A DNA stretch of 64,000 bases from positions 304,581 to 368,580 of the forward strand of contig BQJC01000004.1 in assembly GCA_021604505.1 (NCBI GenBank), in the 5' to 3' direction. The position numbers and the translations under genes were made by a program. Origin of the DNA: Nitrospinaceae bacterium (lineage in GTDB: Bacteria; Nitrospinota; Nitrospinia; Nitrospinales; VA-1). Positions 17,819 to 18,322 of this stretch are shown here, in pieces (the first letter of the stretch is position 1; each line of letters opens with the position of its first letter). The notes beneath the pieces are model-generated. The model worked only from the letters and a program-made list of their open reading frames with translations, made no database searches and had not been told where the DNA came from.

Positions 17819-18232
17819 TTATTTTTTTTCAAACAGGGCATCCAGAATTGGGCATTCTGGTACAACTCCCCCTTCACATTGCGAAGAAATTTTAGCCAAT
17901 ATCTTTTCGAGTTTTTTTAAATCCACAATCTTTCGGCGAATATCTCCCAGATGATGAATTGTGATTTTTTGCACCTGATCGCAGGTGTTATCGCCTCTAT
18001 CGACCAACTTCAAGAGCGCGCGAATTTCTTCAAGTGAAAAACCCAAGTCCCTACCACGACGGATAAAAACAAGCCGCTTAATGTGGTTTTCGCTATAAAT
18101 CCGGTGTCCCCCCTCAGTTCTAGGGGGCTTCGGGAATATAGCAATCTTTTCATAGTAGCGGATGGTCTCAATCTTACAGTGAGTAAGATCGGATAAAACC
18201 CCGATGGTAAATTTTTTTTCTCTATTTTGCAT
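17819..18232 (-). CDS. MerR family heavy-metal-responsive transcriptional regulator (three-cysteine type)
   Basis: The N-terminal HTH is FTIGVLSDLTHCKIETIRYYEKI. There is a coiled-coil dimerisation helix. By my count the cysteines are C84, C119 and C127 (..DNTCDQV.. and ..SSQCEGGVVPECPIL), spaced much like Hg/Cd/Pb-sensing MerR proteins. Confidence 0.85.
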   Translation of the reverse strand: MQNREKKFTIGVLSDLTHCKIETIRYYEKIAIFPKPPRTEGGHRIYSENHIKRLVFIRRGRDLGFSLEEIRALLKLVDRGDNTCDQVQKITIHHLGDIRRKIVDLKKLEKILAKISSQCEGGVVPECPILDALFEKK

Positions 18233-18240
18233 AATAGCCC

Positions 18241-18271
18241 TTGAACCTGTAGTTGCTACAGGTTGTACATT
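18241..18271 (+). promoter_or_regulatory. MerR-type promoter: TTGAAC -35, 19-nt spacer containing a 9-bp perfect inverted repeat, TACATT -10
   Basis: TTGAAC is at 18241-18246 and TACATT at 18266-18271. AACCTGTAG (18244-18252) and CTACAGGTT (18256-18264) are exact reverse complements separated by 3 nt. The element lies between the divergent merR-like gene and the DUF169 gene. Confidence 0.6.
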
Positions 18272-18322
18272 ATAAACGAAAAAATGCTTGATGGAAAATG
18301 ACTATAAAACCGGGAGAGGATC

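Follow-up and report, generated by a model that had tools for sequence, protein, structure and literature searches.

The locus described here raises the question of which signal a MerR-type regulator answers to, and which genes it governs, when it stands beside a gene for an HgcA-like corrinoid protein. It lies in a 64,000-nucleotide stretch of a Nitrospinaceae bacterium (assembly GCA_021604505.1, contig BQJC01000004.1, positions 304,581 to 368,580 of the forward strand; hereafter the window, in whose numbering positions are given), where the merR-type gene diverges from a six-gene operon (Table 1). HgcA-like cassettes of this kind make marine Nitrospina suspected producers of ocean methylmercury; Nitrospina-type hgcA dominates open-ocean hgcA inventories, and methylmercury production is unconfirmed, with no hgcA-bearing isolate tested (PMC12874090). 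From the analysis of the sequence we conclude that the regulator is probably a metal sensor akin to those of mer operons, which most likely responds to Hg(II) and switches on the HgcA-like operon.

The regulator matched the Pfam models MerR_1 (PF13411, 66 bits), MerR (PF00376, 48 bits) and MerR-DNA-bind (PF09278, 69 bits), in each case above the cut-off, and aligned over its full length with Bacillus megaterium MerR (4UA1), so that the N-terminal winged helix-turn-helix (HTH) and the coiled-coil dimerisation helix characteristic of the family are both present. In a PDB search 4UA1 was also its closest solved relative (E 5e-31), followed by CadR (6JGV, 2e-25), PbrR (5GPE, 2e-24) and then Tn501 MerR (5CRL) and CueR. 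The original prediction, made from the bare sequence, had proposed Cys84, Cys119 and Cys127, with spacings of 35 and 8, as metal ligands in a C-EGGVVPE-C-P-I-L context, and both are confirmed by the translated open reading frame (ORF), which reads SQC-EGGVVPE-C-PIL at this point. The epithet "three-cysteine" is correct for this triad but not for the whole protein, since a fourth residue, Cys19, located in the HTH, had been overlooked. One ligand thus stands at the start of the dimerisation helix and two in the C-terminal loop, and they align with Cys79, Cys114 and Cys123, the Hg ligands of the Hg-bound Bacillus protein (4UA1), the loop being one residue shorter. None of the four cysteines varies among 12 orthologues (52-93% identity), and H94 and P125 are likewise constant. 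Orthologues of 74-93% identity occur in 10 of 60 relatives with a patchy distribution (two of five in the same genus, yet across three families), and all four genomes of genus g13 carry a version that is 52-58% identical.

The intergenic region carries the dyad operator within a 19-20 bp spacer of a divergent promoter that marks the MerR subgroup. The TTGAAC-N19-TACATT promoter was found exactly where it had been placed, with a spacer of exactly 19 nt, and so was the perfect 9-bp inverted repeat. The latter had been described as centred in the spacer, which is roughly true, as in classical mer promoters, but its axis (18254) is displaced by 2 bp from the centre of the spacer (18256) toward the -35, the last 3 nt of which are covered by the left arm. 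Transcription to the right is predicted to start near 18278. On the minus strand, a standard promoter scan, whose search covers no 19-nt spacers, disclosed a probable merR promoter with a -10 that interleaves with the rightward -10 and an expected start inside the dyad. Classical mer loci are built in this way, with two divergent promoters overlapping about a single operator and, as the merR start would fall inside the operator, autorepression of merR is predicted.

Perfect inverted repeats of at least 9 bp with a loop of up to 6 are not rare in the window (four distinct ones versus a shuffle mean of 1.5), and the palindrome alone is therefore weak evidence; each of its arms, AACCTGTAG and CTACAGGTT, occurs once in the window. 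Its position and its conservation, on the other hand, are not explained by chance. In the intergenic alignment of 10 orthologous Nitrospinota loci, the block CCTTGAACCTGTAGT.ACTACAGGTT.TA.ATTATA was nearly invariant, including the ATTATA that corresponds to the merR -10 region on the minus strand, whereas the 5' untranslated region after it had diverged with indels. We read this block as a phylogenetic footprint, which takes in the -35 and both -10 elements as well as the dyad and the spacing of 19 nt. Moreover, the exact site CCTGTAG-N3-CTACAGG occurs a single time in the 3.64-Mb genome (96% complete). A genome scan that allowed up to two mismatches in the dyad yielded it as the sole exact site, with 6 mismatched sites compared with 21 in a reversed-pattern control, and no second metal-type MerR was found in the same genome. 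With one exact operator and one metal-type MerR, the regulon thus appears to be this single operon. Taken with the invariant cysteine triad, the conserved operator-promoter and an operator unique in the genome support the proposal of a MerR activator that responds to a divalent thiophilic metal and acts on the rightward promoter.

We believe that control is exerted as follows. A homodimer would bind the AACCTGTAG-N3-CTACAGGTT dyad inside the over-long 19-bp spacer and, in the absence of metal, would hold the rightward promoter inactive while also blocking its own divergent promoter, TTTCCA-17-TATAAT. Hg(II) would then be bound by Cys84 of one subunit and by Cys119 and Cys127 of the other, and under-twisting of the spacer by the loaded dimer would bring the -35 and -10 into register, switching on the genes for the DUF169, thioredoxin-like, CpaM and HgcA-like proteins, the 62-aa ORF and the YHS protein. 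In this scheme the binding to DNA, the assignment of the metal and the response to it, the distortion of DNA that brings about activation, autorepression and the transcription starts are expected by analogy with the established mechanism of the MerR family.

Table 1. Features of the regulator locus and its operon, in window positions
Feature	Position	Strand	Remarks
Whole cassette, regulator plus six-gene operon	17789..21579		~3.8 kb; between ligA and htrA
merR-type regulator gene	17819..18232	minus	137 aa; winged HTH, dimerisation helix, metal loop Cys84 / Cys119-x7-Cys127
Rightward promoter	18241..18271	plus	-35 TTGAAC 18241-18246; 19-nt spacer; -10 TACATT 18266-18271
Operator, perfect 9-3-9 dyad AACCTGTAG-TTG-CTACAGGTT	18244..18264		arms 18244-18252 and 18256-18264
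Probable merR promoter TTTCCA-17-TATAAT	18269..18297	minus	10 of 12 consensus matches (scan); putative function
Gene 1, DUF169 protein	18323..19033	plus	236 aa; Pfam PF02596, 85 bits; ribosome-binding site GGGAGAGG 18309-18316
Gene 2, small thioredoxin/glutaredoxin-like protein	19092..19361	plus	89 aa; CPIC
Gene 3, CpaM, corrinoid protein-associated S-adenosylmethionine (SAM) methyltransferase	19375..20022	plus	NCBIfam NF043040, 252 bits, above cut-off 180
Gene 4, HgcA-like corrinoid/membrane protein	20019..20888	plus	289 aa; HgcAB_like 232 bits; HgcA 137 bits; Pfam CdhD
Gene 5, Cys-rich ORF	20885..21073	plus	62 aa; 80-89% identical in every cassette
Gene 6, tandem YHS-domain protein	21045..21491	plus	148 aa; Pfam YHS; conserved in cassettes

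As to the metal, it is the loop, together with phylogeny and gene neighbourhoods, and not the operator, that makes the case for Hg(II). A scan of genome contigs gave 76 further homologues of 48-65% identity, mostly from Alphaproteobacteria with some from Gammaproteobacteria and Nitrospirota, and the 7-residue loop C-x5-(V/A)P(E/D)-C-(P/A) is present in every one. In 69 of the 75 loci that could be analysed, a TTGnnn is directly followed by CTGTAG-N3-CTACAG, with a 19-nt spacer and a -10-like hexamer. The regulator faces merT in 69 of the 76 loci, and merP is present in 58 and merA in 64, as in Xanthobacter autotrophicus DSM 431 (L074), a Rhodospirillales (L051) and a Nitrospirales (L042); these merR-merT-merP-merA operons have the loop and operator layout of the window, and differ from it in their target genes. 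Three of the MerAs were tested and scored 535-556 bits on TIGR02053 (cut-off 454), and the MerRs of the same three loci scored 127-132 bits on TIGR02051, the model for Hg-responsive MerR, below its cut-off, so that the curated threshold does not take in this clade of mer regulators. Rhizobial Mer operons are in general Hg-induced with a constitutive merR (PMC11227200), a statement that is not specific to this MerR clade.

A plasmid search gave a closer link with a characterized system, the MerR of plasmid pMR68 of Pseudomonas sp. K-62, which is 54% identical over 130 aa without gaps and has the same cysteine triad, a 7-residue loop (CAGGTAPEC-PII) and a divergent arrangement. Its published dyad is GCACCTGTAGCCGCTACAGGTTG, with -35 and -10 elements 19 bp apart, and the cloned merR-operator/promoter-...-merA-merB1 segment conferred Hg(II) and phenylmercury resistance on E. 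coli (Sone et al. 2013, PMC3737084). The pMR68 cluster-1 operon (merR-orf4-orf5-merT1-merP1-merF-merA-merB1) is, however, a classical transport/reductase/lyase operon, whereas that of the window has no merT, merP, merA or merB. In pMR68, orf4, annotated as a virginiamycin B lyase gene, directly follows the merR operator.

The maximum-likelihood tree, which is unrooted and which we read only in the starred local branches around them, placed the HgcA-linked regulators in one clade (100/95) within the merT-linked set, its successive sisters being a gammaproteobacterial protein linked to merT (99/85) and the regulator of a merT-merP locus of Nitrospirales (88/83). Rooting with CadR, PbrR or Bacillus MerR was discarded, as these long branches attach unreliably. 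The two kinds of module also meet on a JGI metagenome contig (L133, 1060-6402), in which a 66%-identical regulator faces a DUF169, thioredoxin-like, CpaM, HgcA-like, 72-aa and YHS cassette that is directly followed by a second module, merR-merT-merP; the dyad accompanies both MerR paralogues. On this contig merR and the DUF169 gene are separated by a 613-bp "gap", in which an uncalled ORF, beginning immediately downstream of the promoter, seems to be present.

Several observations weigh against the Hg(II) assignment. The regulator scored below every NCBIfam equivalog cut-off tested (MerR, CadR-PbrR, CueR and ZntR), including that of TIGR02051 (120.2 bits versus 150.85). The spacing of its cysteines is 35 and 8 and not the 35 and 9 of Tn501 (C82/C117/C126) or Bacillus (C79/C114/C123) MerR. 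Classical mer genes, merT, merP and merA among them, are missing from the operon, and no MerA above the cut-off was found in the genome. The tree, besides being unrooted, is built on few columns, with unreliable placement of the outgroups. PaCadR, a Cd/Zn sensor, prefers the same dyad core, CCTGTAGT.ACTACAGG, in experimental site selection (PMC12301328). Finally, canonical hgcAB has been reported not to be Hg-induced (bioRxiv 10.1101/2022.10.17.512643).

The failure of the curated models is uninformative, because MerRs of merT/merA-linked operons in the same clade fall below the threshold as well, and naming the metal from such models was rejected for this reason. The other models gave 114.4 bits for TIGR02047 (CadR/PbrR, cut-off 151.45), 113.6 for TIGR02044 (CueR, cut-off 147.4) and, for ZntR, 98.7 versus 168 (TIGR02043) and 106 versus 143 (NF007069). 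The spacing of 8 between Cys119 and Cys127 is that of CueR, but this C-x7-C spacing is the sole resemblance, and a CueR-type sensor of +1 ions was ruled out since Cys84 occupies the N-terminus of the helix, where CueR has Ser. Nor is the regulator of the ZntR type, as its loop, CEGGVVPEC, lacks both the Cys-Cys pair and the His found in that protein (C114, C115, H119, C124). With the MerRs of Tn501/Tn21 and Bacillus (5CRL, 4UA1) it has in common the fold, the three Cys ligands, the 19-bp spacer with a dyad and the divergent overlapping merR promoter; what sets it apart is the C-terminal Cys pair, 8 and not 9 residues apart, and a different operator. That of Tn501 is TCCGTAC-N4-GTACGGA.

The alternative that survives best is that the regulator, in the manner of CadR, ZntR or PbrR, senses Cd(II), Zn(II) or Pb(II), and that the operon is a general soft-metal response rather than a response to mercury. 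The three-Cys layout is found in CadR and PbrR too, which rank second and third among the solved relatives; the YHS and thioredoxin-like proteins are generic metal handlers, and the operator core equals both the site selected as preferred by PaCadR, AACCCTGTAGTTACTACAGGGTT, and the native cadA/cadR site, GACTCTGTAGTTGCTACAGGGTG (PMC12301328). Since the PaCadR sites have the same core, this DNA specificity is common to CadR and the present MerR clade, and the operator was discarded as an indicator of the metal; the earlier caution that the sequence alone cannot assign the metal is thus well founded, extending even to the dyad. The CadRs of P. aeruginosa and P. putida (6JGV; PMC12301328) also resemble the regulator in the recognition-helix region (DC.VETIRYYE), but are about 41% identical to it (an estimate from the 6JGV alignment), have a 6-residue loop and a His-rich tail, target cadA and sense Cd/Zn. 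The loop of the regulator has 7 residues, against 6 in CadR and 8 in PbrR, and there is no His-rich tail, so that the CadR/PbrR type was not accepted; TIGR02047 scored well below its cut-off (114 bits versus 151), CadR and PbrR stand on a long separate branch of the tree, and all the 48-65% homologues with a readable context are in merT/merP/merA operons and not in cadA, zntA or pbr loci. On this balance we consider a Cd, Zn or Pb sensor unlikely.

A second alternative keeps the activator but changes its ligand, which would be a soft species tied to the substrate of the operon (methylmercury, other organomercurials or another thiophilic species) and not inorganic Hg(II). Some MerRs of broad-spectrum operons respond to organomercurials, the pMR68 relative belongs to a broad-spectrum operon containing merB, and the operon of the window encodes a methyltransferase and a corrinoid protein, with no reductase. 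Against this, the metal loop is common to regulators of narrow-spectrum merTPA operons lacking merB, and no feature of the sequence marks a different ligand. We give this alternative only a small chance.

The last alternative, that the site is a relic or a coincidence and that the regulator has lost control of the rightward operon, or acts chiefly in ligA transcription, draws on the 30-48 nt gap to ligA without a terminator-like site, across which read-through is possible, but is very improbable, as the operator and both promoters are nearly invariant also where the cassette does not adjoin ligA, the regulator always travels with the operon, and relatives without the cassette have ligA adjoining htrA.

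We return, then, to the probably Hg(II)-responsive regulator of the HgcA-like operon and to its odd position beside ligA, to which attention had already been drawn. The two genes are adjacent on the same strand as described, although the distance is 30 nt (17789-17818, to the TTG start of ligA) and not 31, and becomes 48 nt with the ATG at 17770 as the start of ligA. The position is explained by the insertion of a cassette, made up of merR and the operon, between ligA and htrA, and it is for this reason that merR ends 30 nt from ligA. Five relatives, of which two belong to the same genus, lack the cassette; in these ligA adjoins htrA directly with a gap of 10-127 bp, which indicates that ligA does not need merR. 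The cassette stands between ligA and htrA in the family of the window and at other places in other genomes, its regulator and operon genes travel as a unit in at least 9 genomes, and its GC content is 43.6%, versus 52.3% and 48.6% in the flanks. No tRNA genes were found within 18 kb of five cassettes and no flanking repeats were seen at the junctions. From its placement, its absence from relatives and its GC content we take the cassette to be an inserted unit, probably acquired horizontally. Because no terminator-like site is predicted between merR and ligA, merR transcription may read through into ligA; none is predicted after the YHS gene either. A 3.6-kb contig in a Flavobacteriales bin (L039) has a copy of the cassette whose proteins are 79-84% identical to those of Nitrospinota, and is probably a mis-binned Nitrospinota contig.

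Within the operon, the DUF169 gene is the first divergent gene in all orthologous cassettes. The thioredoxin-like gene may be dispensable or decaying, since it was not found in four orthologous cassettes (L024, L027, L028 and L031) and matches as two pieces in different frames in two others (L025, 8598-8854, and L029, 9354-9621). The HgcA-like protein is closer to the HgcAB-like model than to HgcA but below both cut-offs (285 and 275 bits, respectively), and its cap-helix motif, NVWCAAAE, fits the loose pattern N(V/I)WCA(A/G) without matching the NVWCAAGK-type motifs of high stringency given in PMC10087281. The protein has no ferredoxin domain; no HgcB-type ferredoxin motif was found in the cassette, nor any C(M/I)ECGA motif in the window. 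The YHS component also occurs in ordinary mer operons, as deduced from an alphaproteobacterial metagenome-assembled genome (L048, 3143-3508) in which a YHS protein 50% identical to that of the window follows merA in a merT-merP-merA operon. The best MerA-like match in the genome of the window (G000:C1:406322-407683; 381 bits, cut-off 454) lies in a 719-aa open frame that may represent a fused pyridine-nucleotide disulfide oxidoreductase.

The association of merR with hgcA is already published, and the regulator itself is an ordinary "short-loop" MerR of the mer-operon clade with a textbook promoter; it is its wiring to an HgcA-like/CpaM operon that is unusual. Villar et al. (bioRxiv 10.1101/648329) reported merR beside Nitrospina hgcA, with MerR1, UbiE, DUF169 and YHS around it, and hypothesized that these genes are under Hg-induced MerR control. 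This is the same gene set as in the cassette of the window, the UbiE-type methyltransferase included, and the available part of their description gives neither an operator or promoter nor an analysis of cysteines or loop, and it does not treat the phylogeny of the regulator or the insertion site. What is new here, as read from the sequences, is the operator with both promoters, their conservation and their near-identity with a working mer operator, together with the nesting among merTPA regulators, the apparent single-site regulon and the insertion-site evidence. A metalloregulator is also encoded beside the hgcA-type genes of Pseudodesulfovibrio mercurii ND132, but the hgcAB regulator of this strain is ArsR-like, of another family, and works by repression, and ND132 hgcA shows no response to Hg (bioRxiv 10.1101/2022.10.17.512643).

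With a regulator descended from mer operons, an operator nearly identical to that of a working mercury-resistance operon and a sole genomic site, the idea that the operon responds to mercury becomes a concrete hypothesis, one that an E. coli reporter could test cheaply and for which culture of the organism is not needed. A broader and more speculative idea, which we hold only tentatively and judge rather doubtful as it stands, is that mer operons were the source of an Hg(II)-sensing MerR that drives, in aerobic or microaerophilic Nitrospinota (and Nitrospirota), a self-contained operon with CpaM and an HgcA-like protein, the Nitrospina "HgcA" system being a dedicated mercury-inducible mercury-handling pathway. 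If so, the pathway would possibly be a methylation fed from SAM without HgcB, it would contrast with the canonical hgcAB, which is not induced by Hg, and the promoter would offer a simple reporter of the response of oceanic Nitrospina to ambient Hg.

Related regulators were also observed in other contexts. In genus g13 (L035, 7502-9011; L034; and L036, by its start sequence), the gene opposite the MerR, which has the same dyad, encodes a 239-aa protein in which a DF-family (seleno)protein-like domain is fused to a MerC-like membrane domain, and this gene is followed by a thioredoxin-like gene 40% identical to that of the window, a context that speaks for mercury as does that of L133; in L033, of the same genus, no divergent gene of at least 70 aa follows the operator. 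Other Nitrospinota (L016-L023) have a second, distant MerR type (34-41% identity) with loops of 8 or 9 residues and with dyads that are either ACCCTGTAC...GTACAGGGT or the Tn501-like TCCGTAC-N4-GTACGGA. Lastly, in a Logan contig (L132, 3731-6414) a 71%-identical MerR with the dyad CTTGAATCTGTAGTTACTACAGATGCTACATTATAA faces not an HgcA-like operon but a gene for a 734-aa NHL-repeat protein and a gene of the FGE-sulfatase family.

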